Below, piece after piece: positions 7,892 to 62,061 of a stretch of DNA of 64,000 bases. The position numbers and the translations under genes were made by a program. The stretch is from Bacillota bacterium (GTDB lineage Bacteria; Bacillota; Sulfobacillia; JAUYEG01): assembly GCA_030691505.1 (NCBI GenBank), contig JAUYEG010000087.1, positions 2,476 to 66,475 on the forward strand, written 5' to 3'. Numbering within the stretch: the stretch's first letter is position 1; each line of letters begins with the position of its first letter. Below the pieces are notes generated by a model. It did not search any database. It had not been told where the DNA came from and was given only the letters and a program-made list of their open reading frames with translations.

Positions 7892-9343
7892 TTGGCAGTT
7901 CGATTTGGCACGGATGGCTGGCGTGCCGTGATCGCCGATGAATTCACGATGAGCAACGTAGCCCTGGTCGCGGCGGCTGCGGCGGCACTGCTGCACGAGC
8001 GAGGGACCGCGGGAGAGGGCGTCGTGGTGGGACACGACCGGCGCTTCCTGTCCGACGCGTTCGCGCGCAGGTGCGCCCACGTCCTGGCGTCGTCCGGGGT
8101 ACGCGTGCTGCTGTGCGGCTATCCATGTCCGACACCTGCGGTGGGCCTCGCCGTCCGTTCCACGTCCAGCGCCCTCGGCATCATCGTCACCGCCAGCCAC
8201 AACCCCTACCAGTACAACGGCATCAAGCTCCGCGCGGCCACGGGTGCGCCGCTGGGCCCGGAGGACCGGCGCTGGATTGAGGAATGGATCGCCTCCGCAC
8301 GTGACGGAATCATGAGCCGCCTGGCCCGTCCGGGCGGCGAGGGACGCATACGGGCGCACGACCCCTGGCCGGAGTACCGGAACCACGTTGCCGCCCGCGT
8401 CGACCTTGAGGCGATCGGGGCCGCCGGCCGTACCGTGATCCATGACGCGATGCACGGGGCCGCCGCGGGATGGCTAGAGCGACTGGTTCCTCAGGTCCGC
8501 ACTGTCCGCAGGTCCCGGGATCCGCTCTTCGGAGGAACGGTGCCCGAGCCGCTTGCCGAAAACCTGACATCCCTCAGCCGCCGTGTGCGACGGTCCGCAC
8601 GCCCGGCAATCGGCCTGGCAACCGACGGTGACGGCGACCGCCTTGCGGCCATCGCCGAGGACGGGACCTATGTGGACTCGCACCATCTGCTTGCGCTCCT
8701 CTACTCCCACCTGGTTGAGGTACGGGGACTGCGGGGGCGCGCCGTGCGCACCGTCACCACGTCCGCGCTGGTTGACCGGCTTGCAGAGAGCTACGGGCTG
8801 CCCGTTGACGTCACTCCCGTCGGCTTCTGGCACGTGGCGAGACGGTTTGCGGCGGCTGTCAGGCCTCCCGCGGTCATCGGCGGAGAGGAGAGCGGGGGGA
8901 TCGGTTTTCCGCTGCACCTTCCCGAGCGAGACGGCATCTTCGCGGGCCTCATGCTCCTCGAGCACCTGACGCGGCAAGGCGTCACCCTGCGGGAGGCGAT
9001 AGACCGTCTGGCGCAGCGCTGCGGCCGTACCTATATTGACAGGCGCGACGTCAGGCTGCCGGCCGGGGAGGCCGCCGCGGAGGAGGCCGAGCGGGCCTGC
9101 TTGCCCCCGCGGACCCTGCTTGGACGCCCTGTGTTGCGGTGGCAGCGGGTTGACGGGCTCTGCATCGAAGCCGCGGGGGCCTGCCGCCTCCACGTGCGCG
9201 CGAGCCACACTGAGCCCGTGCTGCGGCTTTACGCCGAGGCCGGCAGCCGCGAGGACGTCGCTGCCCTGCTTGAGGAAGGGATTGCCCTGGTCAGAGCAGG
9301 TGATCGAGGCCTGCGCGACGGAGTTCCTCCTGTAGCAGTTTGA
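7892..9343 (+). CDS. phosphomannomutase / phosphoglucomutase
   Basis: FGTDGWR N-terminal motif and TASHNP active-site serine loop. TTG start with RBS GGAGGGG. The track ORF start at 7559 is an extension. Confidence 0.8.
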   Translation: MAVRFGTDGWRAVIADEFTMSNVALVAAAAAALLHERGTAGEGVVVGHDRRFLSDAFARRCAHVLASSGVRVLLCGYPCPTPAVGLAVRSTSSALGIIVTASHNPYQYNGIKLRAATGAPLGPEDRRWIEEWIASARDGIMSRLARPGGEGRIRAHDPWPEYRNHVAARVDLEAIGAAGRTVIHDAMHGAAAGWLERLVPQVRTVRRSRDPLFGGTVPEPLAENLTSLSRRVRRSARPAIGLATDGDGDRLAAIAEDGTYVDSHHLLALLYSHLVEVRGLRGRAVRTVTTSALVDRLAESYGLPVDVTPVGFWHVARRFAAAVRPPAVIGGEESGGIGFPLHLPERDGIFAGLMLLEHLTRQGVTLREAIDRLAQRCGRTYIDRRDVRLPAGEAAAEEAERACLPPRTLLGRPVLRWQRVDGLCIEAAGACRLHVRASHTEPVLRLYAEAGSREDVAALLEEGIALVRAGDRGLRDGVPPVAV

Positions 9344-10403
9344 TGTCCTGATCCCGGCGGCGGTCGCACACCAGGAGCACGTCGCCGGTGTCGACGATGA
9401 TCAGGTCGCGCACGCCGAGGGTCGCCACGACCCTGCCGCCGGCGGCATCGATGATGCAGCCCCCGGTTTCAACCGTCACCGCCGGACCGAGGACCACATT
9501 GCCGTCTCCGTCGGCGACGTTTGTCCTGCGCAGCGAAGACCAGCTTCCGAGGTCATCCCACCCGAACGCGGCCGGTACTGTGACCACGCCGCGCTCACGC
9601 TCGAGGACCCAGCGGTCTACCGGCACGGCTGGGAGCTGCGCGTACAGTGCGGCCATGCGGTCGGGGGCCGCCGCCCGGCTCAGCTCAGCCAGCACCTGGC
9701 CTGCTCCGATGTCGTGCCTCCCCATGGCCTCGAGGATCGTGCCGGCCTGCCAGGCGAAAATGCCGGCGTTCCATAGGTAGCGGCCGTCACTCAGATAGCG
9801 GGCCGCCCGCCTCCGATCCGGCTTCTCCACGAAGCGACGCACGGCGAGGACGGTCCGGCCTGCGGCGCTGTACACGGCCTTCCCCGGCAGGATGTACCCG
9901 TAGCCGGTCTCGGGGCGGGTCGGGCGCACCCCGATGGTCACGATCGCGCCGCCCGCGGCCGCGCCGATTGCCGCCGCCACGGTTGCGCTGAATTCATCCG
10001 GGCCCTCGACCCGGTGGTCGCTCGGGGCCACCAGCATCACAGCGTCGGGCCGCCCGCAGCGTGTCACGATATGAAGGGCGGCCAGGGCCACGGCCGGACC
10101 TGTGTTGCGGGCCGCGGGCTCCACCAGGATCCCTTCAGCCCCGATGCCCGGAAGCTGCCGGGCGACCTCGATTTCATAGGGATGGTGCGTGACGACGATG
10201 GTGTTCGCCGGCGGCACCAGCCGCCCCAAACGCGAGGCCGTGGACTGCAGCAGCGACTCGTCTCCACCGGCGAAGGACATGAACTGCTTGGGCCGGTGGC
10301 GGCGGCTTCTCGGCCAGAACCGCGTGCCGAGGCCCCCCGCGAGGATGACCGCGAAGACCGGGACCCCCCCGGGCTCCATGCGCAGACCCCCGGTATCCGT
10401 CAT
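9291..10403 (-). CDS. manC: mannose-1-phosphate guanylyltransferase
   Basis: AVILAGGLGTRFWP nucleotidyltransferase motif and a left-handed beta-helix C-terminus. ATG overlaps the stop of the upstream ORF as ATGA. Confidence 0.8.
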   Translation of the reverse strand: MTDTGGLRMEPGGVPVFAVILAGGLGTRFWPRSRRHRPKQFMSFAGGDESLLQSTASRLGRLVPPANTIVVTHHPYEIEVARQLPGIGAEGILVEPAARNTGPAVALAALHIVTRCGRPDAVMLVAPSDHRVEGPDEFSATVAAAIGAAAGGAIVTIGVRPTRPETGYGYILPGKAVYSAAGRTVLAVRRFVEKPDRRRAARYLSDGRYLWNAGIFAWQAGTILEAMGRHDIGAGQVLAELSRAAAPDRMAALYAQLPAVPVDRWVLERERGVVTVPAAFGWDDLGSWSSLRRTNVADGDGNVVLGPAVTVETGGCIIDAAGGRVVATLGVRDLIIVDTGDVLLVCDRRRDQDIKLLQEELRRAGLDHLL

Positions 10404-12229
10404 GGCTGATCCGCTTCCTGACCGCTGCCTGCAAGAAACGAACCGGCCAGAGCAAAGCTGCCCGCCAGCAGGGCCCAATAGGCGGCGAGCATCGCCGGCG
10501 GCACCGGCCTGTCGCCGATGGTTTCGGCCGCCCTGCCCAGCGCGGCGAGCGCGTCCCGCCGGGCCGCGTGTACCTGCAGCACCTGCTCCGCCGGTCCGAA
10601 CAGTTCCGGGGGAGCGGCACGGAGGGTGGCGGCGCCGGGCCGGCCGCCCCGCCGGACGGGCAGCGCCAGGACTGTGTTTTGCGGTTCGAGCGCCCGCCAG
10701 ATCCCGGCCGCGGCCGCATCCGCGGCGGTGGCCGGGGCAGCAGCACGTGGCGCGGCAAGGACATACAGGTACGGGGCGGCGGCAAGGACGTCGCCCCACG
10801 AACTGAATTGGGCTTGGGCATCTACCACCGGAACCAAGACGGAGCGGCCGCCGGTCCGGACGGTGTGCGCCAGACGGCGCAGCCCACCGTCGTCCTGGGG
10901 ACCGCGCCAGATGGCCAGGAGCAGATGGATATCCTCCATGGACTGTCCGGCGGCCACGCTCGCGCCCGGGGCCGCAAGGTCGGCGATGGCGGCGATGCGC
11001 GAGCCGGGGGACCACAGCTCCGGCCGCGCGACGCTGCCGCCGGGCCCGACCCGGAACCGGGCCGGGCGCCGGCGCGCCATTGGCCGGACAGAGAGATCAA
11101 CCGTGGGTGGAAAGGTCGAACCAGCCGCAGCGGGGACCAGCGGAGGTCCGGACGACGGGGGGGCGGCATCCAGGCGCAAGCACAGCACCGCCTGTCTGGC
11201 CCGTCTGAGGGCGTCCGGCCAGGCAGCCCCCCGGGCAATCTCGGCACCCGAAGGCAGCCAGCAGGCCTCGACCGCGATCCACGCCGGGCCCTGATGGATC
11301 TGCCGCGCCGGCGGGGCCGCCGGCATGCGACCAGCCAGAGGGATGGCAAGCGGCATCCCCAAGCCTGGCGCCTGCCCGCCGGGCTTCGCCAGCCGCTGCG
11401 GAAACGGCGGTAAGGCGTCGCCGGTGGGGGCCCCGGCCGCGCCGGTTCCGGTGGGCGGCAGCCTGACATCTACTGCCGCACGGTCCGCTATCTCATCACG
11501 GTAAGCACAGGCGTACACCACCGCGGTTGACAGGTCATCCCCTATGGCCGCGATGGCCCCGGCTAGATCCCGGCGGGCTTCCGGCGCCAATGCGCCATAC
11601 GGGTCGTCCAGCAACAACAGCTCCGGGTACGCGGCGAGCTCGCGGGCCAGGACCAGGCGTTCGCGGTCGACCGGAGAGAGCGAGGCGGCCTGGGCCTGCG
11701 CGACCTGGGCCAGCCCCGCCGCCGCCAGAGCCTCCCCGGTGCGGCGCTCCACCTGTGCCTCCGGCAGTCCCCCGAGCACCGGTGCGAGCGCTACGTTCTC
11801 GCGGACCGTGAAGTCGGGCCTCGGACGCAGCCCCGGGGTCACAACGCCGGGACGGGCCGCCGCGCGAGGCAGAGACCACGCCGGGTGGCCACCCAGATAC
11901 ACCTCGCCGCGCTCGGGCAGGTCGATGCCCGCGATCGTTCTCAGGAGGGCTGACTTACCCGCCCCGGGCGGGCCGGTGACTGCCACCAGCTGTCCCGGCC
12001 CGACAGAGAGGTCCAGGCCGGACCCTGCCGGCCAGTCCACTCCCGCGGGTCTGAGGCCCTGGCAGCGCAGCCATGGGCGGCTTTCTTGCGCGCTGCGCCG
12101 CGCGGTGTCCGTACGGGTGGGCGGCCGGGGCTCACGCGGAGAGGTGCCCACGCTGATCAACCGCCCATCGATAGACGAGCCATGTCTCCACTGCTGCGCG
12201 ACGCCAGCTGTAGCCGCGGACGCGGACAC
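10400..12229 (-). CDS. degenerate ABC-type nucleotide-binding domain fused to a ~380-aa Ala/Pro-rich domain of unknown function
   Basis: Walker A GPPGAGKS. Signature degenerate (LSPVDRERL). Walker B LLLLDDP (catalytic Glu replaced by Asp). No H-loop His. The C-terminal region has no recognisable motifs. The stop is translationally coupled to manC. Start uncertain; candidates are GTG 12229 and GTG 12151. Confidence 0.5.
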   Translation of the reverse strand: MSASAATAGVAQQWRHGSSIDGRLISVGTSPREPRPPTRTDTARRSAQESRPWLRCQGLRPAGVDWPAGSGLDLSVGPGQLVAVTGPPGAGKSALLRTIAGIDLPERGEVYLGGHPAWSLPRAAARPGVVTPGLRPRPDFTVRENVALAPVLGGLPEAQVERRTGEALAAAGLAQVAQAQAASLSPVDRERLVLARELAAYPELLLLDDPYGALAPEARRDLAGAIAAIGDDLSTAVVYACAYRDEIADRAAVDVRLPPTGTGAAGAPTGDALPPFPQRLAKPGGQAPGLGMPLAIPLAGRMPAAPPARQIHQGPAWIAVEACWLPSGAEIARGAAWPDALRRARQAVLCLRLDAAPPSSGPPLVPAAAGSTFPPTVDLSVRPMARRRPARFRVGPGGSVARPELWSPGSRIAAIADLAAPGASVAAGQSMEDIHLLLAIWRGPQDDGGLRRLAHTVRTGGRSVLVPVVDAQAQFSSWGDVLAAAPYLYVLAAPRAAAPATAADAAAAGIWRALEPQNTVLALPVRRGGRPGAATLRAAPPELFGPAEQVLQVHAARRDALAALGRAAETIGDRPVPPAMLAAYWALLAGSFALAGSFLAGSGQEADQP

Positions 12230-13310
12230 GTCCGCTTGCCGCGAGGGCTCTGCGCCGCTCCGGCTCGGAGAGCGCCAGGGCCAGCTTTGAGGCCATCATC
12301 GCCGGATCGCAGGGATCGAAGAACAGCGCCGCATCGCCCGCAACTTCGCGGTGGGCGGGGATGTCGGAAACGACCAGCGGCACGCCGCAGGCCATGGCCT
12401 CGACCAGCGGAAGGCTGAAACCCTCGCTCAGCGACGGGCAGCAGACCAGCCCTGCCGCTCCGTAAAGGCCCGGCATGTCCGATACGGGGACCAGGCCTGG
12501 CATCACGACCCGTCCCTGCAGCCGGCAGTCCGAGATCATCTGCGCAAGACGCGAGCTGTCACGGCCGGGTGCGCCTGAGAGAACGACCTGGGGCAGGGCC
12601 TGCGCCGCGCTCCGGTCCTGGAGGAGCCGGGCCGCCGCATCGAGCAGCAGGGCCAGATTCTTGCGTGGATTGAAGCCCCCGACGTGCAGGATGTACCCCG
12701 GGGTCAGGCCGTATTTCGACGTCACCTTTCGGACGCCGTCCTCGCTGATCTCAGCAAGGTACTGCTCTTCGGGCGCCTCGTGAACAACCGCGATCTTTTC
12801 GGCGGCAATCCCGAGCACCTCACGCAGGTCCACCGCAGTCGAGCGGGACACGGCGATGATCCGGTCGGACCGGTGCATCGCCCATGGCATGTCTCGGATG
12901 CTGTCGCGCAGGTAGCTGGCACTGCAAGTCTGGGGCAGGGTGAAGGGAATCAGGTCATGAACCGTCGTTACCACGGCGCAGGGCACATCGGGCAGTCCCC
13001 GCCCGTTCTGCGGCAGGTGCAGGATGTCGGCTCGCTCGCGGACGCAGAGGTCGGCCAACTCCGCGGTTTCCGCCGCGCGCTCCGTCGCCGAAAGGCGCAC
13101 GCACCGAACCCGGGCCCGGGGTTCCACGGCTGAGCCGGTCGCAAGGCTCTCCTCGAGCGGGAGCGGCGGTGCCCCCTGGGGCAGGCAGATCACCACGGTG
13201 TCACAGGCACTGGCCGTTAGGGCCACGTTCTCGGCCAGTTGGTGCGTATAGGTGCCGATGCCCGTGCCGCGGTAGCGGATTGCGCCCCGGCCGTCGATAA
13301 CGATCCGCAA
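12132..13310 (-). CDS. GT4-family glycosyltransferase
   Basis: GT-B fold C-terminal region with an EGFSLPLVEAMACG motif. N-terminal RGTGIGTYT motif shared with two paralogs in this window. Confidence 0.85.
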   Translation of the reverse strand: MRIVIDGRGAIRYRGTGIGTYTHQLAENVALTASACDTVVICLPQGAPPLPLEESLATGSAVEPRARVRCVRLSATERAAETAELADLCVRERADILHLPQNGRGLPDVPCAVVTTVHDLIPFTLPQTCSASYLRDSIRDMPWAMHRSDRIIAVSRSTAVDLREVLGIAAEKIAVVHEAPEEQYLAEISEDGVRKVTSKYGLTPGYILHVGGFNPRKNLALLLDAAARLLQDRSAAQALPQVVLSGAPGRDSSRLAQMISDCRLQGRVVMPGLVPVSDMPGLYGAAGLVCCPSLSEGFSLPLVEAMACGVPLVVSDIPAHREVAGDAALFFDPCDPAMMASKLALALSEPERRRALAASGRVRVRGYSWRRAAVETWLVYRWAVDQRGHLSA

Positions 13311-13313: not shown

Positions 13314-14330
13314 CTAACCCCCCCGGCTGGCCTCAGTGTGTTCTTGAATACAGGCCATCTGGGTTTGGTACTCCTGCATGGCCCGCTTGAGGTGCCTCAC
13401 GAAGGTGTTCTCCGGCCAGTCGCGCTTATGCTCGTAGTAGCGCTGCGCCAACTGGTACAAGCGGTCCGGGAACTCCAGCACCAGCATGAGGATCGACTTC
13501 TCCCCGGCTGACATCGGGCGCTCCCGGTCATAGGCCGCGATGACCCGGCCAAGCAGCGCGCTGTCGCCGCCTGTGCCCTTGATGACGCGTAACGCCAGAC
13601 GTGCCACATCGGTGACATGGCATTCGCGCCGGCACCCACCCCAGTCCACAAATACCGCACGGGGCTGCGGCTCGTTGGTCAGGACGACACCGTTCCGGCC
13701 CACGCGGCGATACACAAACAGCCCCTGTTTCCTGGACTGCTCCGCCAACTCCGCCCACTGCGAGGACTCAAGCCGCTCCAGCGTGGCCTCCGCCTGCGGC
13801 AGCACGGTCTCGACCGCCGCCAGAAACCCGCGGTCCATGGCCGTCCGGCGCAGCTTGTTGTGCGCCATCAAGACATACGTGCGCAACGACCTTATGCGGT
13901 CGCGGCAGCGCGAGAGGTAGCGGTGGTACATGTCGAGCGGTTCGGGCATCTCGTCGCCGTTCAGTTCCGCGGAGGCCCGGTGCAGCGAACCCAGAGCGGC
14001 GGCCGTGGCCAGCGCATCGCTTTCCAGTCCCAAAAGGGCCCCGTGCCCGTCTACCAATTCGCTCAACAGCCAGGTAGAGTGGCCTGCGCGGACCCCAAGC
14101 TGCCCGGCCGCGTCGCGGCGCCAGGCGGGGAGCCCCGCAAACCCCTGGGCGAGCAAGTGCTCGATGGCCCGCAAGGACAGGTCCGCCTTGGCGCTCCGCC
14201 GCTTTATCTCCCGCAGCACCAGCATGTCGTCACCGGCCAGCACGAGCCACGCGGCATGCCCGCAGGGCTCGATCCTGGCCGGCTGCACGATGCCGTACCC
14301 GGCCAGGATCTCCGCAAAGGCCGTTTCCAT
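13314..14330 (-). CDS. CotS-family spore coat protein (protein-kinase-like fold)
   Basis: Aminoglycoside-phosphotransferase/CotS-like catalytic region (VFVDWGG, CHVTD). Start likely at METAFAEIL, immediately after the upstream stop. Confidence 0.65.
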   Translation of the reverse strand: METAFAEILAGYGIVQPARIEPCGHAAWLVLAGDDMLVLREIKRRSAKADLSLRAIEHLLAQGFAGLPAWRRDAAGQLGVRAGHSTWLLSELVDGHGALLGLESDALATAAALGSLHRASAELNGDEMPEPLDMYHRYLSRCRDRIRSLRTYVLMAHNKLRRTAMDRGFLAAVETVLPQAEATLERLESSQWAELAEQSRKQGLFVYRRVGRNGVVLTNEPQPRAVFVDWGGCRRECHVTDVARLALRVIKGTGGDSALLGRVIAAYDRERPMSAGEKSILMLVLEFPDRLYQLAQRYYEHKRDWPENTFVRHLKRAMQEYQTQMACIQEHTEASRGG

Positions 14331-14331
14331 G

Positions 14332-16296
14332 TCAGCTCTCTTGCCGGGGGTGCACCGGCGACGGCCATTTGCTCCAGACGATCGTGCGGGGACCAGGAGG
14401 GGCGGCAGCCACCTGCACGGCCTGGTCCTCTGCCGGCGCCGCATCGTGTGGCTCGAGGTCATCCGGCGCGGGGGCTTCGGCCTGCGGCGGCGTGCCGGCC
14501 GCCTCTTCCAGGTCTGCTGCCCGGGCTGGCTTCACGTCGAGGGCCGGGGGCCACTCGTCCGGAATATCTCCTGCCTCGTCGCCGGTTGGACTTTCCGGAG
14601 GGGTTTCCTTGTCCCCCGCAGGCTCCGTGATCTCACCGGTTACGGTCACGGCCTTCTGCTCCCCGGGCGGGCGGACCGGGTGAGGCAGCGGCCCCCACAC
14701 GAGGCGGCGTGCCGGCGCCGAGGCTCGCGCGGAGGCCGGCACGGCAGCCTGCTTGGGAGCTGACACTGTCTCCGGCACGGTCACAGCCACTGGCTCCGGC
14801 TCGGGCTTATGCTCGGCCCCAAGCCCTGGCTCCGGCTCGGCCTGCTGCACGGGCCCGGCCATGGTCTCGGGTTCAGCGGACAGGGGGATCACCAGCTGCA
14901 AACCGGGCTCCAATGCGGTCTCTTTTGCCTCGGCCGCGGGGGCTTCGCTCTCAGGGGCAACCGGGGTCTCCTCCGGCGCCGGCTGCGCGAACACGAGCAC
15001 GTCTTCCTCCTCGGGCTCAGGTTCTGTCCAGGCCTGGTAAATAGGGGTTTCTTCCAACATGGGGGCCGCCTCCTCCTCAAAACTTCCGGCCGGCAGGTCG
15101 ATGGCATCCATCCGCAGCAAGTCCAGAGGGATTGCTTCCAGCTGGTCCGGCTCGACCGGCGTGGCCGGCAGATGCGGTCCGTCAGGCACGTCCGGCGTGT
15201 CTACGGGCTCGGGCCCGGACACGGCGCCCGGGCCGGGCAGGGTCACAAGGATCGGCTCGGCCGGCAGGTCCAGGCCGCCGACTATCTTGGCGAACCTGGC
15301 CCTCTGCTCGGCGCTTTCCAGCAACCTGCGCAGAGTGCGGTTGCGGCGGTGGTCTTTTTGATAGCGGGACTTGCCGACGGCCCAGAACTCCATCGGGAAT
15401 AGCAGGTAGGTTCCGATCAACTCCGTCTCCTCGCGGCTCAGGGGTCTGCCGCGGGCCTGCCCGTAGCTCTGCAAGATAAAGGCCGCGCGTTCAAGGTCCA
15501 GCCCCGCCGCGCGGCGCACGAATTTGGCCAGGTCCTCCAGCCGGATTTCGAGACCCGAGCTGTCAAAATCCAGCAGGCGCAGCCGCATCCGTGAATCCAT
15601 GGCCAGGTTTCGCGGGGTGAAATTGCGGTGGCATACCGCACCCGCTTCCCGCTCTGTCTGCGCCAGATCGCCCAGCGTGGAATCGGCGAGACGGCGAACC
15701 GCCGCCTCGGCCTGACGGCAGAAAGCCGGAGCGGCCTTGGCGTAACGGCTATCGAATCTCGAATCGCGCCGTCCTTCGTCGGCCAGCTCTGCAAAGCCGT
15801 ACAGGTCCCGCAGGCGCTCGACGGACTTATCGAGCCAGCTTCCATAGTCGTCGCGCAACCCGCCGAGACCCGGCCGGGGCCGGAATCGTTCCCCCGCCTG
15901 GTGCATCCTCGCCATTATCTCCACTGCCGTCCGCAGGGTGCCGGGTTCACCGATGTCCGGCCGGCTCAGGTCGTACCAGTCCTGAAGGTAGAGGATTTCG
16001 CCGTCAAGGTGCACGTACGGTTCGCCGCTGCGGGTGAGGTAGATTCGGGGCGCGTCGTCGAAGCCCCGGGAGCGCAGGTGCTCAAGCATGTCATGGACGA
16101 GGCAGATCTCCTGCGGCCCGAACCGGAAGCGTTTCAGGAACCTCGGCCCGCGCGGGCTCTCCACCTTGAAGCCCGATCCCACCGGGATCAGGTTCATGGG
16201 GGTCCAGCCGTAGGCGCCCAGCGCGTCCATCGTCTGCAGATAGCGGTCCCGCTGTTTCGCGAATTCCCGACCATTTGTTTCATCCTGCGAGGTCAT
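14332..16296 (-). CDS. CotS-family kinase-like protein with a ~320-aa acidic Pro/Glu/Ala-rich low-complexity C-terminal tail
   Basis: N-terminal ~330 aa carry CotS/APH-like motifs (CHRNFTPRNLAMD, LLDFD). The C-terminal tail is PEPE-rich. Confidence 0.7.
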   Translation of the reverse strand: MTSQDETNGREFAKQRDRYLQTMDALGAYGWTPMNLIPVGSGFKVESPRGPRFLKRFRFGPQEICLVHDMLEHLRSRGFDDAPRIYLTRSGEPYVHLDGEILYLQDWYDLSRPDIGEPGTLRTAVEIMARMHQAGERFRPRPGLGGLRDDYGSWLDKSVERLRDLYGFAELADEGRRDSRFDSRYAKAAPAFCRQAEAAVRRLADSTLGDLAQTEREAGAVCHRNFTPRNLAMDSRMRLRLLDFDSSGLEIRLEDLAKFVRRAAGLDLERAAFILQSYGQARGRPLSREETELIGTYLLFPMEFWAVGKSRYQKDHRRNRTLRRLLESAEQRARFAKIVGGLDLPAEPILVTLPGPGAVSGPEPVDTPDVPDGPHLPATPVEPDQLEAIPLDLLRMDAIDLPAGSFEEEAAPMLEETPIYQAWTEPEPEEEDVLVFAQPAPEETPVAPESEAPAAEAKETALEPGLQLVIPLSAEPETMAGPVQQAEPEPGLGAEHKPEPEPVAVTVPETVSAPKQAAVPASARASAPARRLVWGPLPHPVRPPGEQKAVTVTGEITEPAGDKETPPESPTGDEAGDIPDEWPPALDVKPARAADLEEAAGTPPQAEAPAPDDLEPHDAAPAEDQAVQVAAAPPGPRTIVWSKWPSPVHPRQES

Positions 16297-17474: not shown

Positions 17475-17665
17475 CGCCAGCGCGTCACCCGCGGTGAGGC
17501 CAGGACGAACACCGCCAATCCCACGGCGGCCAGGGTGAGTAAGCTTGGCCAAAGCACCAGAGCAGCCGTCCCGAGCAGGATACCCGCCAGGACACGGAGT
17601 TTCCTCGCAGCCGCCCGGAGGCCCCGCGCAATCCTGCGCACGCCGGATGGAGCGCTCGCCGCCAC
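17471..17665 (-). CDS. small (64 aa) predicted membrane protein, translationally coupled to the GT4 gene
   Basis: GTG start. One strongly hydrophobic span (LAGILLGTAALVLWPSLLTLAAVGLAVFVLA). TGA overlaps the downstream ATG. Confidence 0.3.
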   Translation of the reverse strand: MAASAPSGVRRIARGLRAAARKLRVLAGILLGTAALVLWPSLLTLAAVGLAVFVLASPRVTRWR

Positions 17666-17830
17666 CGCCTCACCCCCTCACCCGTCCCTTCATTGTATGA
17701 GCGAGGCGCTGAGCGGTGAGGAGCGGGCGCCCGAACGCATCAGCCTGCCCGGCACTATAATGGACCACCGATTTGAATGTGGGTTTGCCTGGTGTTTTCT
17801 ACCGGGCGCCCGCGCTGAGGGAGGGTCCCG

Positions 17831-18853
17831 GTGGAGACGCAAGCCCTGCTCGCCCACTGGAACCTGACGGTCAAGTCCGCGGAGCCGGTCTCCGGTTCGC
17901 CCCGCGTTCATCGCGTCGAAACCGCGGCCGGCCCGAAGGTGCTGAAGAGGTCCAGGATCAGGGAGGACGAGGTGCTGTTTGTCCACGCGGCCCAGGAGCA
18001 TCTCGCCGCGTCGGGTTTCCATGAGGCTCCGCGCTTTCAGCTTGCCCGTGACGGAAGGCCTTTCGTCCGTCAAGGCTCCGAGCTGTGGACCCTGACGGAT
18101 TGGGTCGATGCGGAGCGCTCCACGCTCCGTCGAAAGAACCAGCTCGATCTGGCGGTGGGCAAAGTTGCGGAATTGCATGAGAGGAGCGCCGGGTTCCCCG
18201 CGCCCGCTCAGCCTGCCGACCGCACTCGGTGGGGGGCCTGGCCGGAGATCTTCCGGGCACGCCTTGACCAGCTTGGCGTATTCCGCCGCCTTGCGCGTGA
18301 GGCCAGGACGCGCACCGCATTTGACCGGCTTTATATGGGGCTGCTTGACTACCACTGGGAACAGGCCGCGACGGCCATTACGCTGCTGCTCCGCACACGC
18401 TACCGCCGGCTGATGGACCTTGAGTGCAGGCGGGCCTCGATCTGCCACCATGACCTGACCCACAACAACATCATGTTCCGACCGGACGGGAGCGTTCACC
18501 TGCTCGACCTGGACTACTGCCTCGCGGACAGCCGGTTGCACGACGTCGGCAGCATGATTCTCCGCCACTGCAAGCGTTTCGGGTGGGATCTGGCGGCGGC
18601 GGAGCTATACATCAAGCTGTACAGCCGTAATAGCCGCGATCCGCTTAGCTCCGACGAGCTTGCCGTTCTCGCGGCCTTCCTGTACTGGCCTCAGGATTTC
18701 TGGCAAGTCGGCCTGCAGTACTACGTTGAAAAACAGCCCTGGCCGCTCAGCAGGTTTCTTTCTTCACTTGAGCGCAAAACGGCCAACCGGCGCGAGCACG
18801 AGGCGTTTCTCGCCGGCTTTCGCCGGCGTTTCTCGCCGGACCTGACGGTGTGA
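17831..18853 (+). CDS. CotS-family spore coat protein
   Basis: ICHHDLTHNNIMF and LLDLDY catalytic-loop motifs. GTG start with RBS GGAGGG. Confidence 0.8.
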   Translation: METQALLAHWNLTVKSAEPVSGSPRVHRVETAAGPKVLKRSRIREDEVLFVHAAQEHLAASGFHEAPRFQLARDGRPFVRQGSELWTLTDWVDAERSTLRRKNQLDLAVGKVAELHERSAGFPAPAQPADRTRWGAWPEIFRARLDQLGVFRRLAREARTRTAFDRLYMGLLDYHWEQAATAITLLLRTRYRRLMDLECRRASICHHDLTHNNIMFRPDGSVHLLDLDYCLADSRLHDVGSMILRHCKRFGWDLAAAELYIKLYSRNSRDPLSSDELAVLAAFLYWPQDFWQVGLQYYVEKQPWPLSRFLSSLERKTANRREHEAFLAGFRRRFSPDLTV

Positions 18854-18860
18854 GGAGACA

Positions 18861-19925
18861 TTGACTTTGGAGCAACCCGGGTTCACACCAAGCTCGCTGC
18901 TTGTCCAATGGCCGGTTGACGTCACAGACGTCAAGGCCGTCGGCGACGTGTACAGCGTCGCCGGTGTGGGGCGGCGCTACGTGCTCAAGCCGATCAACAA
19001 GGGCATGCGCCGCGCCCGCTTTATATGTTCGCTGACCGAATACCTCGGCCGCGGGGCTGATCCCCTGACGCCTGGCTTGATCCGCACCCGGGTCGGGAAA
19101 CTGCTGACCACGGAGTCGAGGCGCCGCCACTGGATCCTGTGCGAGTGGATTCCGGGCCGGACGTGCGACTGGGCGGACCTTGGCGACGCCGCGCGCTGCG
19201 CGGCGGCTCTGGCCAGATTCCACACCCAGGCCCGGGACTACTGCCATCTACCCCACGAGCGACCGCAGGCATACTGGGACCGCTGGCCCACACGACTGCT
19301 GCGGCGCTACGAGGCCTTACGGGGCTTCTGCGCGGCTGCCGAGCGCGCGGTCCAGGCCGGCGGGGCCCCGTACTTCGACCGCATGGTCGCGGCCCAATCT
19401 GCCCGTCAGCTTGCCCGGGCCCAAGATGCGATGCGCGTTCTGGCCGCCTCGCCCTACCGGTCGCTCTGCGCCGAGTACCGCCGGCGGGGTCAGGTCATCC
19501 ACGGCGATCCGGCGGGCCGCAACTTCGTTGCGACCGAGAACGGAATGGTGCGTATCATCGACCTCGAGTCGATAAGACAGGACCTGCCGGCCCTGGACAT
19601 CGCCAAGCTCCTGCGGCGCGTACTCAAAAGCCATGGCTGGCGCACCGACGTGGCCATGGCCGTCCTGTCGGCATACGCGGACGCCGGCGGGCTGGACCCG
19701 TCGATGCTGCCCGTGGTATACGCGTTCATCGCCTACCCGATGAAATTTAGCTACGACGTCAGGCGCTACTACACGTGCGCGGAGGGCTGGGCCTACCGCC
19801 GCCACCTTCGGAAGCTGATCAAGCACCTATGGGGAGAAAAAGGCAAACAGCGTTTCCTCGATTGGTTCGGCCGTGATTTCGCCCGGGCGCCCTATGCGGA
19901 GGCCGATCATGCCGGCGGCTGTTGA
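18861..19925 (+). CDS. CotS-family spore coat protein
   Basis: VIHGDPAGRNFV and IIDLES motifs. Confidence 0.8.
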   Translation: MTLEQPGFTPSSLLVQWPVDVTDVKAVGDVYSVAGVGRRYVLKPINKGMRRARFICSLTEYLGRGADPLTPGLIRTRVGKLLTTESRRRHWILCEWIPGRTCDWADLGDAARCAAALARFHTQARDYCHLPHERPQAYWDRWPTRLLRRYEALRGFCAAAERAVQAGGAPYFDRMVAAQSARQLARAQDAMRVLAASPYRSLCAEYRRRGQVIHGDPAGRNFVATENGMVRIIDLESIRQDLPALDIAKLLRRVLKSHGWRTDVAMAVLSAYADAGGLDPSMLPVVYAFIAYPMKFSYDVRRYYTCAEGWAYRRHLRKLIKHLWGEKGKQRFLDWFGRDFARAPYAEADHAGGC

Positions 19926-20691
19926 GGATTTGCAGGCGGTGGTTCTCGCCGGAGGGTTAGGTCTTCGGCTGCGGCCTGCCGTGGCCGACCTGCCCAAGGT
20001 CATGGCGCCGGTCGCGGGGCAGCCCTTCCTGGCCCACCTGCTGGGTCGTCTGCAGAGGCAGGGCGTGCGCCGGGTCGTGCTTTGCGTCGGGCACAAGGCT
20101 GAAGATATCGCCGGGCACTTCGGCGACGGCCGGCGGCACGGCCTTCAGATCACCTACTCCGTCGAGGACACGCCGGCGGGGACGGGTGGGGCGCTCCGGC
20201 TGGCATGCCGGCTGCTGGATCCGGCATTTCTGCTGCTCAACGGGGATACCGCCATCGATCTTGACCTCTGTGAGCTTCGGGACTACCACCGGGCGCGAGG
20301 CGGGTTGGTTACAGTTGTCGGGCGCCGCTGGCGCGGGAGGCCGCGCCAGGACGCCGGTTACGTTCTGGCTGCCCGGGGTGGGCGGGCCCTGGCTTTCACC
20401 CGTGGTCCCGTTGCCGGCCGCGTGTTTCCGGAGGGTGAGCTGTGGGTCAACTGCGGCTGGTTTATGTGCGAACGCCGGGCTGCGGAGATGATCCGGCGAC
20501 CGCCAGGGGCGATGTCCAGCCAGGACGCCCTATCGCTTGAAAGCGGGCTATTCGCGTCCGTGCTTGGCGCCATCTTCGTGTTTCCGACTACGCAGCCGTT
20601 CGTGGATATCGGGACCCCCGAGCGATACCGGCGGCTCAAGCGGGAGTGGGAGGACAATGCAGTACCTGAGCCGGGCCCCCCTGCGGGTTAG
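19909..20691 (+). CDS. hddC: sugar-1-phosphate nucleotidyltransferase (D-glycero-alpha-D-manno-heptose-1-phosphate guanylyltransferase-like)
   Basis: AVVLAGGLGLRLRP ... DLPKVMAPV ... GTGGAL NTP-transferase motifs. Start uncertain (19873-19909). Confidence 0.7.
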   Translation: MPAAVEDLQAVVLAGGLGLRLRPAVADLPKVMAPVAGQPFLAHLLGRLQRQGVRRVVLCVGHKAEDIAGHFGDGRRHGLQITYSVEDTPAGTGGALRLACRLLDPAFLLLNGDTAIDLDLCELRDYHRARGGLVTVVGRRWRGRPRQDAGYVLAARGGRALAFTRGPVAGRVFPEGELWVNCGWFMCERRAAEMIRRPPGAMSSQDALSLESGLFASVLGAIFVFPTTQPFVDIGTPERYRRLKREWEDNAVPEPGPPAG

Positions 20692-21685
20692 CTTCGCGGG
20701 GGGCGGCACCGATGTCTCCCCGTATCCGGAGACGGCCGGCGGGGCGGTGCTCTCCGTTGCCATCAACCGTTTCTGCCGCGCCGTGCTGGCGCCGCGCAGG
20801 GACGGATTGGTGTTCGTGCGCTCGCTCGACTACGGGGTCAGTCACGTATTCCCGATTGACCGGGTGCCGGACTTGACCGGGCCGCTGGCTCTCACCGGAG
20901 CCGTCCTGCGGGCCGCGGGGGATCTTGGTTCAGGCCTTGACCTTGTGTCCGCAAGCGAGGCGGCTCCCGGGTCGGGCCTTGGGGCAAGCAGCGCCCTGGT
21001 TGTCGCCATTCTTGGGGCTGTCCGCGCCTGGCAGGGCCGGCCGTGGACAAACGCTCAGCTTGCCGAACTGGCCTATCGGGTCGAACGGATCGACCTCGGG
21101 CTCAGCGGCGGCCGCCAGGACCAGTACGCGGCCGTCTTCGGAGGCCTCAACTTCCTGGAGTTTCTTCCCGGGCGGACCATCGTCAACCGCCTGCAGCTGC
21201 CTCGAGGCGTCGACGATGGACTCAAAGCGAGCCTCCTTCTCTGTTACACGGGAAAGGGGCATCCCAACGAAGACCTTATCGGCCAGCAGGTCGCCTCCTT
21301 CCGGGCCGGCGAGCGCAAGGTGGTCGCCGCATTGGAACACCTCAAGGAACTCGCTGTGGTCATGAAGCAGGCCCTCGAACGCGGCGACCTCGAGTCTTTT
21401 GCCGGTCTGTTGGCTCAGGGGTGGGAGCACAAGAAGGCCCTTGCCGACGGGATCAGCGACCCGGCCATCGACCGGATGTACCAGGCCGCCCTGGATGCTG
21501 GGGCGCTCGGCGGCAAGTTGTTGGGATCCGGGGGCGGCGGGCATTTGCTGCTCTTTTGCCCGCCATCGAGCCGGGCCCGTGTGGTGGGGGCCGTGCAGGG
21601 CCACGGCTGCCGCGAGGTGCCGTTTGACTTCAGTCCCGGCGGCGTGGAAGCCACGATTTCCGGAGGTGATCCCGTTGCCAGCTGA
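20657..21685 (+). CDS. hddA: GHMP-family sugar kinase (D-glycero-alpha-D-manno-heptose-7-phosphate kinase-like)
   Basis: PLRVSFAGGGTD N-terminus and GHMP ATP motif PGSGLGASSA. RBS GGGAGGA lies upstream of ATG 20657. Confidence 0.75.
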   Translation: MQYLSRAPLRVSFAGGGTDVSPYPETAGGAVLSVAINRFCRAVLAPRRDGLVFVRSLDYGVSHVFPIDRVPDLTGPLALTGAVLRAAGDLGSGLDLVSASEAAPGSGLGASSALVVAILGAVRAWQGRPWTNAQLAELAYRVERIDLGLSGGRQDQYAAVFGGLNFLEFLPGRTIVNRLQLPRGVDDGLKASLLLCYTGKGHPNEDLIGQQVASFRAGERKVVAALEHLKELAVVMKQALERGDLESFAGLLAQGWEHKKALADGISDPAIDRMYQAALDAGALGGKLLGSGGGGHLLLFCPPSSRARVVGAVQGHGCREVPFDFSPGGVEATISGGDPVAS

Positions 21686-22976
21686 GGACCGGCGGGGTTA
21701 CCTTGACGATTGGTTGGCCTGGACTCAGTCCGCGGTGCGGAGTCTGGAGCCTGCCGCACGCTGTCTGGCTGATCTGGTATCCCTGGTGCTTGCGGCGGGC
21801 GGGTCACTGTACGTCTGCGGCAACGGCGGAAGCGCCGCCGATGCCCAGCACTTCGCGGCCGAGCTGGTCGGACGGTTTCTGCGGGAACGTGCGGCGCTGC
21901 CGGTCGTGGCGCTGACGGCGAACACATCGGTACTCACGGCCCTGGGCAATGACTACGGCTTTGACGCCGTCTTTGGCCGGCAGGTCGAGGCCATGGCCCG
22001 CCCCGGCGACTGCCTGATGGTAATCTCCACCAGCGGGCGGTCGCCTAACGTCCTTGCCGCCCTGCGGGCCGGGCGCCGGCAGGGTGTCCTCACCATAGCC
22101 CTGGTCGGGCCGGAAGGGCTTGACCCCTCTGTCGTATCCTGCTGCGATTTCTGCCTGGCCGTGTCGGGCCCGGACGGCGGCACCGCGGAGACCTGGTCGG
22201 GCATGGCCACGCCGCACGTGCAGGAAGTGCATCTGGCCCTGCTGCACTACGTTGCCCACCTCGTGGAACGCGGCGTTGAGTCGCGCAGGGGCCGCCCGCG
22301 GCGATGCGCCCTGCGGCCGGCGGTGTTCCTGGACCGCGACGGCACTGTCGTCCAAGAACGGGGGCACATCACCGATGAGCGCGACCTCGCGGTGTTGCCG
22401 GGCGCTGCGGACGCGGTCAGGCGGCTGAAAGGGGCCGGGTTTGTCGTTGTCCTGACGACCAATCAATCGGTGGTCGCCCGCCGTCTGGTTGACGGGCCGG
22501 GTCTCGAGCGGCTGCACGGCCGCCTGCGGGCGCTTGCCGGCGAGCGCGGAGCTGTCCTCGACGCCATCTACCATTGCCCGCATCACCCCGAGCATGGCCT
22601 GCCGGGTGGGCCGTGCGCCTGCCGAAAGCCGATGCCCGGGATGATGCTCCGCGCCGCGGACGAGATGTCGCTTGACCTGGGAGCCTCATTCGTGATCGGA
22701 GACAACTGGACCGACGTGCAGGCCGCCGCCGCGTGCGGTGCACATGGCGTGCTGGTCCTCACCGGCTCAGGGGCCGGCGCGCTGGCGGCCGGGAGTCCGC
22801 TGGCGGCCGAGAGCGCCGGGCGATGGTCCGTTGCCACCGACCTCGCCGCTGCCGCGGACGACGTGATCGCCCGCCACCGGGCAAACGAGTCGTGGCCGGC
22901 CCCGGGCGGCCGGGCGGGCACCCCGGGACCGGCAGAGGCGGGCAGGGGTCCGGGCGATGATTCGCATCGGCATTGA
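21675..22976 (+). CDS. gmhAB: bifunctional fusion: SIS-domain phosphoheptose isomerase (GmhA) + HAD-type D,D-heptose-1,7-bisphosphate phosphatase (GmhB)
   Basis: SIS motifs (YVCGNGGSAADAQHFAAEL, ISTSGRS) followed by the HAD motif FLDRDGT and a Cys-rich CPHHPEHGLPGGPCACRKP zinc loop typical of GmhB. TTG start with RBS GGAGGTG. Confidence 0.75.
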   Translation: MPAEDRRGYLDDWLAWTQSAVRSLEPAARCLADLVSLVLAAGGSLYVCGNGGSAADAQHFAAELVGRFLRERAALPVVALTANTSVLTALGNDYGFDAVFGRQVEAMARPGDCLMVISTSGRSPNVLAALRAGRRQGVLTIALVGPEGLDPSVVSCCDFCLAVSGPDGGTAETWSGMATPHVQEVHLALLHYVAHLVERGVESRRGRPRRCALRPAVFLDRDGTVVQERGHITDERDLAVLPGAADAVRRLKGAGFVVVLTTNQSVVARRLVDGPGLERLHGRLRALAGERGAVLDAIYHCPHHPEHGLPGGPCACRKPMPGMMLRAADEMSLDLGASFVIGDNWTDVQAAAACGAHGVLVLTGSGAGALAAGSPLAAESAGRWSVATDLAAAADDVIARHRANESWPAPGGRAGTPGPAEAGRGPGDDSHRH

Positions 22977-24102
22977 CGCCCGGCCCTCCGTCTGGTACCG
23001 CGGCACCGGTATCGGCAACTACACGTACCAGCTGGTGCAGCACCTGCAGAGGATGGACCGGGTCAACATGTACTCCATCCTGTGGCCCGACGATTGCCCG
23101 CTTCCCAATCTTCCGCCGCGCTGGCGCGCGACTGCGATGCCGAAAAAGCGCAGTGACGAGCGGCAACTGATCGGCCCGTGGCTGCGGGAACAGGATCTGG
23201 ACGTGTATCACCTGCCGCAAAACGGGCTGCGCGCCCCCGCCGATCTCGGCCGCACCCGGCTGGTGGTGACGATCCATGACCTGATCCCGTTCCTGCTCCC
23301 CGAATACGTGCGCCATTCGTTCGCCAGGCGGTTTCTGCGCGAGGTGCCGGCAGCCGCCAAGCGAGCCGCCCGGGTGGTCACGGTCTCGCGGCGCTCCGCG
23401 TGCGACCTGACCCGCATCCTCGGAGTGGACGAGGGCAAGATCAGGGTTGTCTATCCGGCGCCTGAGGAGGTGTTCCGCCCGGTGCCCGCGGCGGCCAGGC
23501 GGCGGGTCGCGGCCGAGCTGGCGGTCCGGTACGGCGTACATGAGCCGTACGCGCTTTACGTGGGTGGAATCACCCCGCGCAAGAACCTGTTTGATCTGGT
23601 CTATGCGTTTGGCAAGATCTGCCGTCAGCTTGTTCCGCAGATGACCCTGGTCATCTCCGGGCTGCTCGGGCAGCACGGGAGTCAGGTGGCAGAGCTCTCC
23701 GAGCTTCTGGGGCTCAAATCCTACGTGCGCCTGCCGGGCGAGGTGCCCCTGTCCGACCTTCCCGCCCTATACAGCCTGGCCACCTTCGCCGTCTACCCCT
23801 CGATGTATGAGGGATTCGGCCTGCCGCCGCTCGAGGCCATGGCCTGCGGGACGCCGGTGCTGTGCTCCGACGCCGGCTCGCTGCCCGAGGTGGTGGGCAG
23901 GGCCGGGCTGATCGTAAGGTCAGGCGACGTGACCGCGCTGAGCGAGGGCATGCTTCGCCTGGCCGGGGACCCCTGGCTGCGCGACCGCCTGGTGACACGC
24001 GGGGAACGGCATGTCGCCCGTTTCTCGTGGGCGGCCACGGCCGCCGGCATCCTCGACGCATACCGCGAGGCCGCCGCGCAGGAGGAAACCGGTGGCGGAT
24101 AG
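22957..24102 (+). CDS. GT4-family glycosyltransferase
   Basis: [14 protein letters not shown] motif. N-terminal RGTGIGNYT motif. Confidence 0.85.
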   Translation: MIRIGIDARPSVWYRGTGIGNYTYQLVQHLQRMDRVNMYSILWPDDCPLPNLPPRWRATAMPKKRSDERQLIGPWLREQDLDVYHLPQNGLRAPADLGRTRLVVTIHDLIPFLLPEYVRHSFARRFLREVPAAAKRAARVVTVSRRSACDLTRILGVDEGKIRVVYPAPEEVFRPVPAAARRRVAAELAVRYGVHEPYALYVGGITPRKNLFDLVYAFGKICRQLVPQMTLVISGLLGQHGSQVAELSELLGLKSYVRLPGEVPLSDLPALYSLATFAVYPSMYEGFGLPPLEAMACGTPVLCSDAGSLPEVVGRAGLIVRSGDVTALSEGMLRLAGDPWLRDRLVTRGERHVARFSWAATAAGILDAYREAAAQEETGGG

Positions 24103-24134: not shown

Positions 24135-24632
24135 ATGCGGCAGGGGAGGCCACCGGCCCCAGTGCAGGTTTTGACGCAGGAGGAGAGGACAACCCGCGAC
24201 TTCGCGGTAACGGTGTTCATCGTCCAACAGGGGCGTGTCGCCCTGCTATACGATGAGCTGGCCGGGACGCTGGCCGCACCCTCGGGCCACATCCGCCTTG
24301 AGGAGCTTCCTGCCCAAGCCGCCGCGCGCGTCGCCCTCGCCCAGACTGGCATGCCCGTTGAGCTGATCTTGCCTTTTGCGCCGGTTTGGGCATCGCCTTT
24401 CCTGGCCCGCCCGGAGGGGCTGCTGCTGGAGGCGATAACCCTCAGCCATGAGCACATCAGCCTGGTCTACTTCGCCCGGCCCGCAACGGGCTTCCGCCTG
24501 CGGCTGAGCGAGGAATTGCCCTTCCTGCGCTGGTTTGACGCCGCCGCCCTGGAGGGCATCGGGCTTCAGCCGGAGATCGCGGGCTGGGCGTCCGAAGCGA
24601 TATCCCGCGACCTCCGCCAAGATCGCCCCTGA
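24135..24632 (+). CDS. NUDIX-like hydrolase-fold protein with a degenerate Nudix box
   Basis: PSGHIRLEELPAQAAARVALAQTGMPV resembles GX5EX7REUXEEXGU, but with the EE pair replaced. Start uncertain. Confidence 0.4.
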   Translation: MRQGRPPAPVQVLTQEERTTRDFAVTVFIVQQGRVALLYDELAGTLAAPSGHIRLEELPAQAAARVALAQTGMPVELILPFAPVWASPFLARPEGLLLEAITLSHEHISLVYFARPATGFRLRLSEELPFLRWFDAAALEGIGLQPEIAGWASEAISRDLRQDRP

Positions 24633-34617: not shown

Positions 34618-34755
34618 CAAGCTGTCTCAGAAACAAGCGTTCCCGTGGGTTAAAATACCAGGTCTCGCCCCCGAAACATTGTACAGGCACTTTTGGCGGA
34701 CTCTGCGCCTTACGCCCGTTTCGATGGCCGGACGCGCCCGCTGGGAGGGAACACC

Positions 34756-51619: not shown

Positions 51620-51630
51620 GTGGTCAAGAC

Positions 51631-53631: not shown

Positions 53632-53643
53632 GGGGGAGCCGGT

Positions 53644-55839: not shown

Positions 55840-55856
55840 GACATCGTCCCGTTGGA

Positions 55857-55882
55857 GCCCCGCCCGCCAGGACGGGCGGGGC
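55857..55882 (+). other. intercistronic GC hairpin (CCCCGCCCG-ccagga-CGGGCGGGG) between acsB and acsC
   Basis: Perfect 9-bp stem read directly. No U-tract. Confidence 0.5.
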
Positions 55883-55942
55883 CGCGGCGGGGCCTGCCGA
55901 GAGGTCACGCAAGACGTTTGCGGAGGAGGCTGATTTGTTCCG

Positions 55943-57298: not shown

Positions 57299-57360
57299 GG
57301 CGGGCCGGGCTGCCCCCGGGCAGCGCCCGGGGAGGCACGCTCTCGAACGTTGGAGGCTTG

Positions 57361-59325: not shown

Positions 59326-59402
59326 GAGAGGCGGGCCACAGCAGGTATTTATCAGGCGGTCAGGGCGGAGGATGCCCCGGGTCCGCCAAAACGGAGGCCC
59401 CG

Positions 59403-60161: not shown

Positions 60162-60219
60162 GGCTTCCAGACCGCGGGCTGCGCCGCTCGCGTTCGTTTC
60201 AGCGAAAGGAGACTTGCCG

Positions 60220-61188: not shown

Positions 61189-62061
<873 letters not shown>

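Follow-up and report, generated by a model that had tools for sequence, protein, structure and literature searches.

The mother cell makes spore-surface glycans in its cytoplasm, right on the surface of the forespore, such that no membrane export step is needed. In Bacillus, the genes for coat-associated kinases of the cotS/ytaA type cluster with GT4 glycosyltransferase genes of the cotSA/ytcC type and with nucleotide diphosphate (NDP)-sugar genes; in B. subtilis, the cotS/ytaA cluster is controlled by sigmaK and GerE, and many of the kinases are pseudokinases with presumed non-enzymatic roles (PMC2860764). Here, we analyze a cluster of this type in a stretch of 64,000 nucleotides (nt), referred to below as the window, of contig JAUYEG010000087.1 (positions 2,476 to 66,475 of the forward strand; assembly GCA_030691505.1) from a Bacillota bacterium of the GTDB lineage Sulfobacillia; JAUYEG01, and in particular one of its genes, which encodes a degenerate ABC-type protein, hereafter pseudo-ABC. 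The locus resembles the Bacillus cotS/cotSA/ytaA cluster in combining CotS-family, GT4 and nucleotide-sugar genes with a sporulation-sigma-like promoter. It differs from that cluster in the presence of the ABC-like gene and in its sugar genes, with GDP-mannose and apparent heptose pathway genes in the window as opposed to the UDP-glucose-derived sugars of Bacillus.

PhnK, a subunit of the C-P lyase complex that retains the canonical catalytic motifs, is a precedent for a non-transport nucleotide-binding domain (NBD) docked on a soluble enzyme complex. Similarly to the pseudo-ABC, it is an ABC-fold protein encoded in an enzyme operon without a permease; however, it has no C-terminal domain of 300 amino acids (aa) and shows no specific sequence relationship to the pseudo-ABC. 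The degenerate sites of heterodimeric ABC proteins (e.g. ABCC-type NBD1, with Asp for Glu in Walker B) carry the same changes as the pseudo-ABC, but such proteins still have one consensus site as well as a transmembrane domain, whereas in the pseudo-ABC both half-sites are degenerate and there is no membrane domain. By analogy, PhnK, these degenerate sites and the coat-cluster pseudokinases appear to be the closest functional precedents.

With moderate confidence, we propose that the pseudo-ABC has no part in transport and serves as an accessory or scaffold subunit when the mother cell assembles glycan on the spore surface, in a module that also comprises GT4, ManC and CotS-like proteins. The protein may itself be located in the spore coat. 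The gene and its parts are as follows.

10400..12151, minus strand: pseudo-ABC coding sequence, 583 aa plus stop; NCBI MDP2872404.1; likely start GTG 12151
11444..12079, minus strand: ABC-type NBD, residues 25-236 of the 583-aa protein (Pfam, AF2, Foldseek, hhalign)
11288..11443, minus strand: Ala/Pro/Gly-rich linker, residues 237-288, predicted to be disordered
10403..11287, minus strand: conserved orphan C-terminal domain, residues 289-583 (~295 aa), seen in homologue alignments
10400..10403, minus strand: stop/start overlap ATGA of the pseudo-ABC gene with manC (...CAG CCA TGA overlapping ATG ACG)

The pseudo-ABC is a member of the ABC ATPase superfamily, as indicated both by its sequence and by the presence of a RecA-like core with a helical subdomain. 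Pfam ABC_tran (PF00005) matches residues 71-210 of the 609-aa open reading frame (ORF) with 68.6 bits against a cut-off of 25, and hhalign comparison of the NBD with 74 canonical NBDs gives a probability of 100% (E 5.6e-44). The AF2 model reaches a pLDDT of 70-94 over residues 24-235, and Foldseek matches it with a probability of 1.0 to LolD, FtsE, MacB, MalK, CysA and PhnK (Protein Data Bank (PDB) 7Z19/7Z17 for the last), with target-normalised TM values of 0.70-0.78 for the LolD, FtsE and MacB NBDs. By sequence, the nearest relatives are the importer-type ATPases CysA, PhnT, PotA and MalK (PDB 1Z47, 2AWN, 8Y5F), along with LolD/FtsE, all of them far below the family cut-offs: the best NCBIfam match, TIGR00968, scores 93.7 bits against a cut-off of 342.75, and PDB 1Z47 is matched with E 2.9e-22. 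The importer ATPases likewise combine an NBD and a C-terminal extension in one polypeptide. However, the pseudo-ABC lacks their catalytic motifs, a detectable TOBE/OB domain and a neighbouring permease or binding-protein gene, and, given the family cut-off and the missing TOBE/OB domain, it does not classify as an importer ATPase of the CysA/PotA/MalK type.

The motif sites of the NBD, assigned by alignment to canonical NBDs, are listed below.

11951..11974, minus strand: Walker A GPPGAGKS, intact (canonical GxxGxGK[ST]), kept in six of the seven full-length family members
11834..11854, minus strand: Q-loop site RPGVVTP, Gln replaced by Pro; RPG(V/L)(V/L)T conserved in the family
11666..11680, minus strand: signature site, LSPVD instead of LSGGQ
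11597..11620, minus strand: Walker B LLLLDDPY, catalytic Glu replaced by Asp; DDPY conserved in six of the seven members
after Walker B, minus strand: D-loop, GALA in place of SALD
11501..11521, minus strand: H-loop site VVYACAY, Cys at the His position (other members: Ser or Ala)

Thus, of the features expected of a competent ABC ATPase, Walker A is present whereas the Walker B Glu and the consensus signature, Q-loop, H-loop and D-loop are not, and the last four sites are replaced in every member of the family. The original prediction, which was made from the window alone, had described precisely this combination of an intact Walker A with altered Q-loop, signature, Walker B Glu and H-loop, and the alignment confirms it. 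Because the Walker-side catalytic residues and the signature are both lost, the NBD would neither hydrolyse ATP nor complete the site of a partner. The protein encoded in the window retains the Walker A Lys and the Mg-binding Asp of Walker B. The change of Glu to Asp and the loss of the H-loop His are classic marks of a site that binds ATP without hydrolysing it, and the motif pattern is consistent with nucleotide binding in the absence of normal hydrolysis.

The pseudo-ABC gene is real and is subject to purifying selection. The uninterrupted ORF runs from 10400 to 12229 on the minus strand (609 codons), and the original prediction had taken it in full; the frame is indeed open throughout, but the likely start is GTG 12151, which yields 583 aa and is shared by the NCBI annotation (MDP2872404.1, 583 aa, named 'ATP-binding cassette domain-containing protein') and, independently, by the Logan gene call (P0001). 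The 26 codons ahead of this GTG (12152-12229) coincide with the 3' end of the GT4 gene upstream, have no coding signal in the pseudo-ABC frame (codon log-likelihood ratio (LLR) -0.13) and are not conserved among the homologues; this extension is probably not translated. When codon usage was scored by log-likelihood, with 25 further genes of the window as the training set, the pseudo-ABC frame was preferred in 17 of the 19 sliding windows; its LLR summed to +39.6 over the NBD part and to +39.5 over the C-terminal part, as opposed to +6.4 and +3.8 for the next-best frame. The pattern of GC1, GC2 and GC3 keeps the same phase along the whole ORF. The codon signal is weakest at 10970-11420, in the poorly conserved low-complexity part, and is weak also over the initial 90 nt. 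As had been pointed out before, the region contains further open frames (10518-11294 and 10568-11413 on the plus strand, 10822-11469 on the minus strand, and an upstream extension of manC to 11015); stop-poor frames of this kind are usual in DNA of 70% GC (the window as a whole has ~67% GC). The frame on which the original prediction settled is therefore upheld by codon usage and by positional GC content, as well as by eight homologues and a dN/dS below 1, with no other frame favoured over it in total, and the ATGA coupling to manC that it invoked is real. Both halves of the gene evolve with a dN/dS of 0.2-0.5 (NG86; dS near saturation). The Logan contig L006 is 99.98% identical to the window and was uninformative with respect to synonymous changes.

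Downstream of the NBD, the protein had been described as carrying a 380-aa Ala/Pro-rich domain. The fusion stands, but the region is not a single domain: it consists of a variable disordered linker, ~20 to 120 aa long across the family, and a conserved core of ~295 aa. In the window copy, the linker (residues 237-288) contains 21% Ala, 21% Pro and 17% Gly and has a pLDDT of 25-35, and the core (residues 289-583) contains 23% Ala and 11% Pro. Conserved blocks extend along the C-terminal domain: WLAVEA, ARxAVLxFR, VxLxVRP, RAxLVDL, LVLALWRGxxDxxxLRRLA, VLPV, PYxYL, WRALxRGxVVAALP, LxGPPxLVLxVHAARRxALAAL and LLAAxWALxAGNFxLA; its dN/dS is 0.25-0.5. In agreement with the earlier claim that this region has no recognisable motif, profile searches for remote homology returned no Pfam or PDB-sequence match even at E<=10 and no NCBIfam match. 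Both the combination of the NBD with this C-terminal domain and the domain itself are undescribed, and the database name of the protein is generic.

Several possible identities of the C-terminal domain were compared by hhalign, with a positive control that reached 100%. A degenerate second NBD, which would make this a tandem-NBD protein comparable to ABCF or RbsA/MglA, is rejected at the sequence level (0.2% against the protein's own NBD, 0.08% against the 74 canonical NBDs). A TOBE-type regulatory domain was suggested by the resemblance of PAWLAVEA to the P.N.FVA.F.G linker and of VxLxVRP to lgiRPE; it is unsupported (0.06%; no match to TOBE, TOBE_2 or OB_MalK at E<=10). A GT-B/GT4-like or CotS-like fold is rejected as well (0.08% each against the neighbouring GT4s and CotS-like proteins). 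By eye only, LALWRGxxDxxxLRRLA gives the impression of a degenerate P-loop-like beta-loop-alpha element. The secondary structure, predicted with low confidence, comprises several beta-strands followed by beta-alpha-beta units and then three helices, of which the last reach a pLDDT of 62-75; a Foldseek search with the low-confidence model of the domain found no significant match. A tail anchor formed by the terminal helix was considered and dismissed: its Kyte-Doolittle value of 1.62 is peculiar to the window copy, and other members have His, Asn, Arg or Glu there. The family alignment contains no conserved transmembrane segment anywhere in the protein.

The family is very rare and clade-specific, with about eight members among billions of proteins. 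With the C-terminal 379 residues as the query, HMMER was run exhaustively against 1.84 billion representatives and returned, besides the protein's own copy P0001, four homologues only (P0063, P0064, P0065 and P0066; E 1e-38 to 3e-6), and all full-length homologues among them share the NBD plus C-terminal architecture. Tracing the orthologues of the neighbouring GT4 added divergent members in the same genomic slot, namely L040 (partial), L041/L042 (NCBI assemblies GCA_040766985.1 and GCA_964430585.1) and L043/L044. Less specific searches were of little further use. Apart from the own copy, a word-indexed search with the whole protein found generic ABC matches only, among them P0002 and P0003, which proved to be EcfA-type tandem NBDs as opposed to orthologues. 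The word-indexed search with the C-terminal alignment found P0066 only, the low-complexity composition limiting word matching, and scans of genome contigs (with the single protein) and metagenomes (with the alignment) found only generic NBD matches and the known JGI contig.

Across seven lineages, the family retains intact ORFs of 524-625 aa at 28-47% identity. The residues that replace the canonical motifs are themselves conserved: RPG(V/L)(V/L)T, P.W(S/T)LP, LS(P/A)(V/A)(D/E), LLDDPY, VVYA(C/S) and DEI..TAT. Because the substitutions recur across the family and dN/dS is low, we interpret this pattern as a change of function under constraint as opposed to decay. Individual members show departures of their own. 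In L009, ~34 residues of the NBD helical subdomain are deleted. The most divergent member (L043 7165-9042 / L044 3265-5127) has a Gln/Glu-rich insertion after the NBD. Judging from these sequences, neither the L009 deletion nor the unusual Walker motifs of L043/L044, to which we return below, would fit a working transporter engine.

The pseudo-ABC gene occupies the same place in a conserved operon, the other genes of which are given here together with the candidate promoter.

9291..10403, minus strand: manC, GDP-mannose pyrophosphorylase type, 370 aa (Pfam NTP_transferase, ManC_GMP_beta-helix; MDP2872403.1), downstream of the pseudo-ABC gene
12132..13310, minus strand: GT4 glycosyltransferase, 392 aa, upstream; it ends 20 nt inside the pseudo-ABC gene
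13314..16296, minus strand: two genes of the CotS family (bacterial spore kinase; 338 and 654 aa) that precede the GT4 gene in the operon
17691..17699, minus strand: CATACAATG, sigmaK/sigmaE-like -10 box upstream of the operon, with AC 16 nt upstream of the box

In all seven lineages, the gene order is CotS-like (~560-650 aa), CotS-like (~335 aa), GT4, pseudo-ABC, ManC, with start/stop overlaps or short gaps at the junctions and a convergent phosphomannomutase (PMM) gene downstream; related genomes thus do carry orthologues beside manC, where the original prediction suggested looking for them. The two CotS-like proteins of the window, annotated as 'hypothetical', match NCBIfam TIGR02906 spore_CotS with 140 and 164 bits, and also Pfam Spore_coat_YutH; with its CotS-family, GT4 and NDP-sugar genes located together in the same orientation, this is a cotS-type cluster. 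In the longer of the two (14332-16296, minus strand), a kinase-fold part of ~340 aa is followed by an acidic, low-complexity tail of ~310 aa rich in Pro, Glu and Ala, and the orthologues of this 654-aa protein are 563-654 aa long. We found no ABC permease gene in the 64-kb window, in line with the earlier remark that there is no adjacent transmembrane partner, nor in the seven syntenic loci. In a sister lineage (L045/L046; GT4 45% identical), manC follows 5 nt after the GT4 gene and the ABC-like gene is absent; therefore, the pseudo-ABC was added, as an optional and clade-specific gene, to an operon that already existed. The sister-lineage stretch (L045 6001-8194 / L046 4018-6211) includes an N6-methyltransferase/Eco57I-type gene and a Coat_F gene downstream.

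At their 3' ends, manC and the convergent PMM gene overlap by 53 nt in the window (9291-9343), in L007 (6920-6972) and in L041 (10009-10061), and by 29 nt in L043 (10113-10141); with this arrangement preserved in the different lineages, no terminator could fit between the two genes. In L041 (10009-11447; GCA_040766985.1), PMM is called as two ORFs (128 and 350 aa), which could reflect a frameshift, a pseudogene or an assembly error.

In B. subtilis, the sigmaK consensus comprises AC-N16-17-CATAnnnTA and the sigmaE -10 consensus is CATACA-T. The CATACAATG site is the sole CATACAnT in the window. A CATAnnATG box occurs in six diverged loci (the window, L040 ~1654, L041 ~2101, L043 ~1916, L045 ~2483 (L045/46) and L047 ~5819), in each case 30-45 nt ahead of the ORF with which the cotS/GT4 operon begins, and with diverged flanks. 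In the window and in L040, AC is found 16 nt upstream of the box. A Shine-Dalgarno-like GGGGG/GGAGG comes after the box. By comparison, CATAnnnT was counted 19 times in 128 kb (both strands). The ATG of the box could alternatively be the start of a conserved small ORF; however, stop codons follow within 1-7 codons in several loci, and a promoter element is the better reading. A small ORF does lie nearby (~17475-17665, minus strand; ~64 aa, GTG start, a hydrophobic stretch of ~32 residues), with an ATGA overlap with the operon's first GT4 gene. L040, L045/46 and L047 have small genes of 64-75 aa in the same or a nearby position; L041 and L043 lack them, and so the ABC-like protein has no obligate partner in the small ORF.

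These observations can be assembled into a model in which the pseudo-ABC would be a clade-specific soluble protein, co-produced with GT4 and ManC from a cotS-type operon and probably specific to the mother cell. Its NBD would retain the ABC fold and, in six of the seven lineages, probably bind nucleotide with no hydrolysis; the dead NBD might contribute its fold only, or it might act as a docking module or as an ATP-bound (ATP-locked) dimerisation module. The C-terminal domain and the terminal helices would bind partners, that is, GT4, ManC or CotS-like proteins, and the glycan built on the spore surface would contain mannose/heptose. A more specific version, which we put forward only as a rather doubtful elaboration, is that of an undescribed spore-surface assembly factor, in which an ABC-derived, non-hydrolysing ATP-binding switch dimerises and recruits the GT4, ManC and CotS-like enzymes to the coat, with a new fold in the C-terminal domain.

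Four observations weigh against this proposal. First, L043/L044 have no Walker A lysine (GGRGGERT) and keep the Walker B DE, the reverse of the other members; to judge by these motifs, ATP binding would not be a universal constraint in the family, and a single nucleotide-dependent mechanism may not cover all of it. Second, the CATAnnATG box supports mother-cell expression but does not prove it, the putative assignment leaning on the B. subtilis consensus. Third, AF2 (five sequences) gave a pLDDT of 40.8 for the C-terminal domain, and below 50 in the full-length run, such that a binding role is not readable from the fold. Fourth, a permease could be encoded elsewhere in the genome, beyond the 64-kb window.

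Several other explanations deserve consideration. The pseudo-ABC could be a structural protein of the spore coat or crust, with the NBD a stable module that has no nucleotide role and the linker and C-terminal domain serving as coat material. The location in a cotS operon, the low-complexity linker and the missing Walker A lysine in L043 are all compatible with this possibility, as are the long low-complexity tail of the neighbouring 654-aa CotS-like protein and the finding that pseudoenzymes are common in the cluster (PMC2860764). However, GxxGxGK[ST] is strictly kept in six of the seven members, and every member has the Walker B Asp, which points to some selection on the nucleotide pocket, and the gene is tightly coupled to genes for enzymes, not to coat structural genes. 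On balance, we consider a purely structural role unlikely, albeit not strongly so.

The organization of the locus also evokes polysaccharide export. Wzt, the ATPase of ABC-type O-antigen exporters, has the canonical motifs, works with a Wzm permease and carries a glycan-binding C-terminal domain of the beta-sandwich type. It joins an NBD to a C-terminal extension, and its locus is of the polymannose type, with GT4, kinase-fold proteins and ManC/ManB. Following the same locus logic, with GT4, kinase-fold proteins and ManC/PMM beside an NBD with a C-terminal extension and no permease, the pseudo-ABC could be a Wzt-like module reused in the mother-cell cytoplasm without any membrane crossing, its C-terminal domain binding the finished or capped glycan. 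Yet neither the canonical motifs nor the permease nor the beta-sandwich was found: the C-terminal domain has no carbohydrate-binding or Wzt C-terminal Pfam match at E<=10, and its predicted secondary structure (low confidence) is alpha/beta plus helices, so that the protein does not qualify as a Wzt-type exporter ATPase. Moreover, the best sequence matches of the NBD are importer-type (CysA, PhnT, PotA, MalK) and LolD/FtsE, not ABC-2 exporters specifically. Such a reuse of Wzt therefore seems quite improbable to us.

A similarly low probability is assigned to the possibility that ManC is regulated allosterically, or partnered, by the pseudo-ABC, which might for instance sense a purine nucleotide or GDP-mannose via the dead pocket and tune the GDP-mannose supply to GT4. 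This would agree with the ATGA or short-gap junction with manC in all loci, the overlap with the GT4 gene and the retention of the P-loop, but ManC works without a pseudo-ABC in the sister lineage.

We regard as very unlikely a working ABC transporter subunit with a degenerate regulatory ATP site, the permease and perhaps a competent NBD being encoded elsewhere. The NBD fold is intact, Walker A is kept, and heterodimeric ABC systems with one degenerate site exist. However, the loss of the signature along with the catalytic residues would cripple the consensus site of the partner as well; an ABC transporter, in the sense of an NBD plus a permease, is not encoded in the window or in any of the seven syntenic loci; the ~34 residues missing from L009 belong to the part of the NBD that normally contacts the coupling helix of the permease; and the sister lineage, in which the remainder of the operon is retained, has no such gene. 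Finally, a decaying ABC pseudogene or a chance long ORF in GC-rich DNA, for which the lost catalytic motifs, the several overlapping open frames and the weak codon signal at 10970-11420 could be cited, is hardly credible against the intact ORFs in seven lineages, the dN/dS values, the conserved replacement residues (DDPY, LSP(V/A)(D/E), RPGVVT, WSLP) and the total codon LLR in favor of the frame.

The remainder of the window (NCBI proteins MDP2872394-407) offers additional information on the organism. A divergent operon (17831-22976, plus strand) encodes two CotS/YutH-family proteins, a nucleotidyltransferase, a GHMP kinase and a SIS/HAD-hydrolase fusion, and a further GT4 gene is located at 22957-24102; judging from the Pfam content, the nucleotidyltransferase, GHMP kinase and SIS/hydrolase set is suggestive of an NDP-heptose pathway. 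A CODH/ACS (Wood-Ljungdahl) cluster that looks complete (50789-63626, plus strand) comprises CooC-like ATPases, Prismane/CODH, ACS beta, CdhD-type subunits, RACo, a pterin-binding methyltransferase and HdrC/B-like genes, and indicates an acetogen-type anaerobe. Because the window carries this cluster along with genes for an H+-pyrophosphatase and LysM/deacetylase genes, the organism is an uncultured spore-former, anaerobic and with high GC content. A large c-di-GMP signalling protein of 1381 aa (34693-38838, plus strand) combines multiple GAF domains with one HD(-GYP-like) and one GGDEF domain, and three ORFs with good coding statistics have no Pfam match at E<=1e-5 (28294-29628, plus strand, 444 aa; 24246-24620, minus strand, 124 aa; 41682-42407, plus strand, 241 aa).

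ABC-type NBDs are nearly always taken for the engines of transporters. Here, a hydrolysis-dead module of this kind is fused to an orphan domain in a spore-coat glycosylation operon, and the automatic label 'ATP-binding cassette domain-containing protein' is no evidence of a transporter. The family defines a domain of ~295 aa that lies outside every current library. If the proposed role is established, the pseudo-ABC would represent a new class of ABC-derived pseudoenzymes and would provide a handle on the mother-cell assembly of the spore-surface glycan, a process that is poorly understood even in Bacillus.

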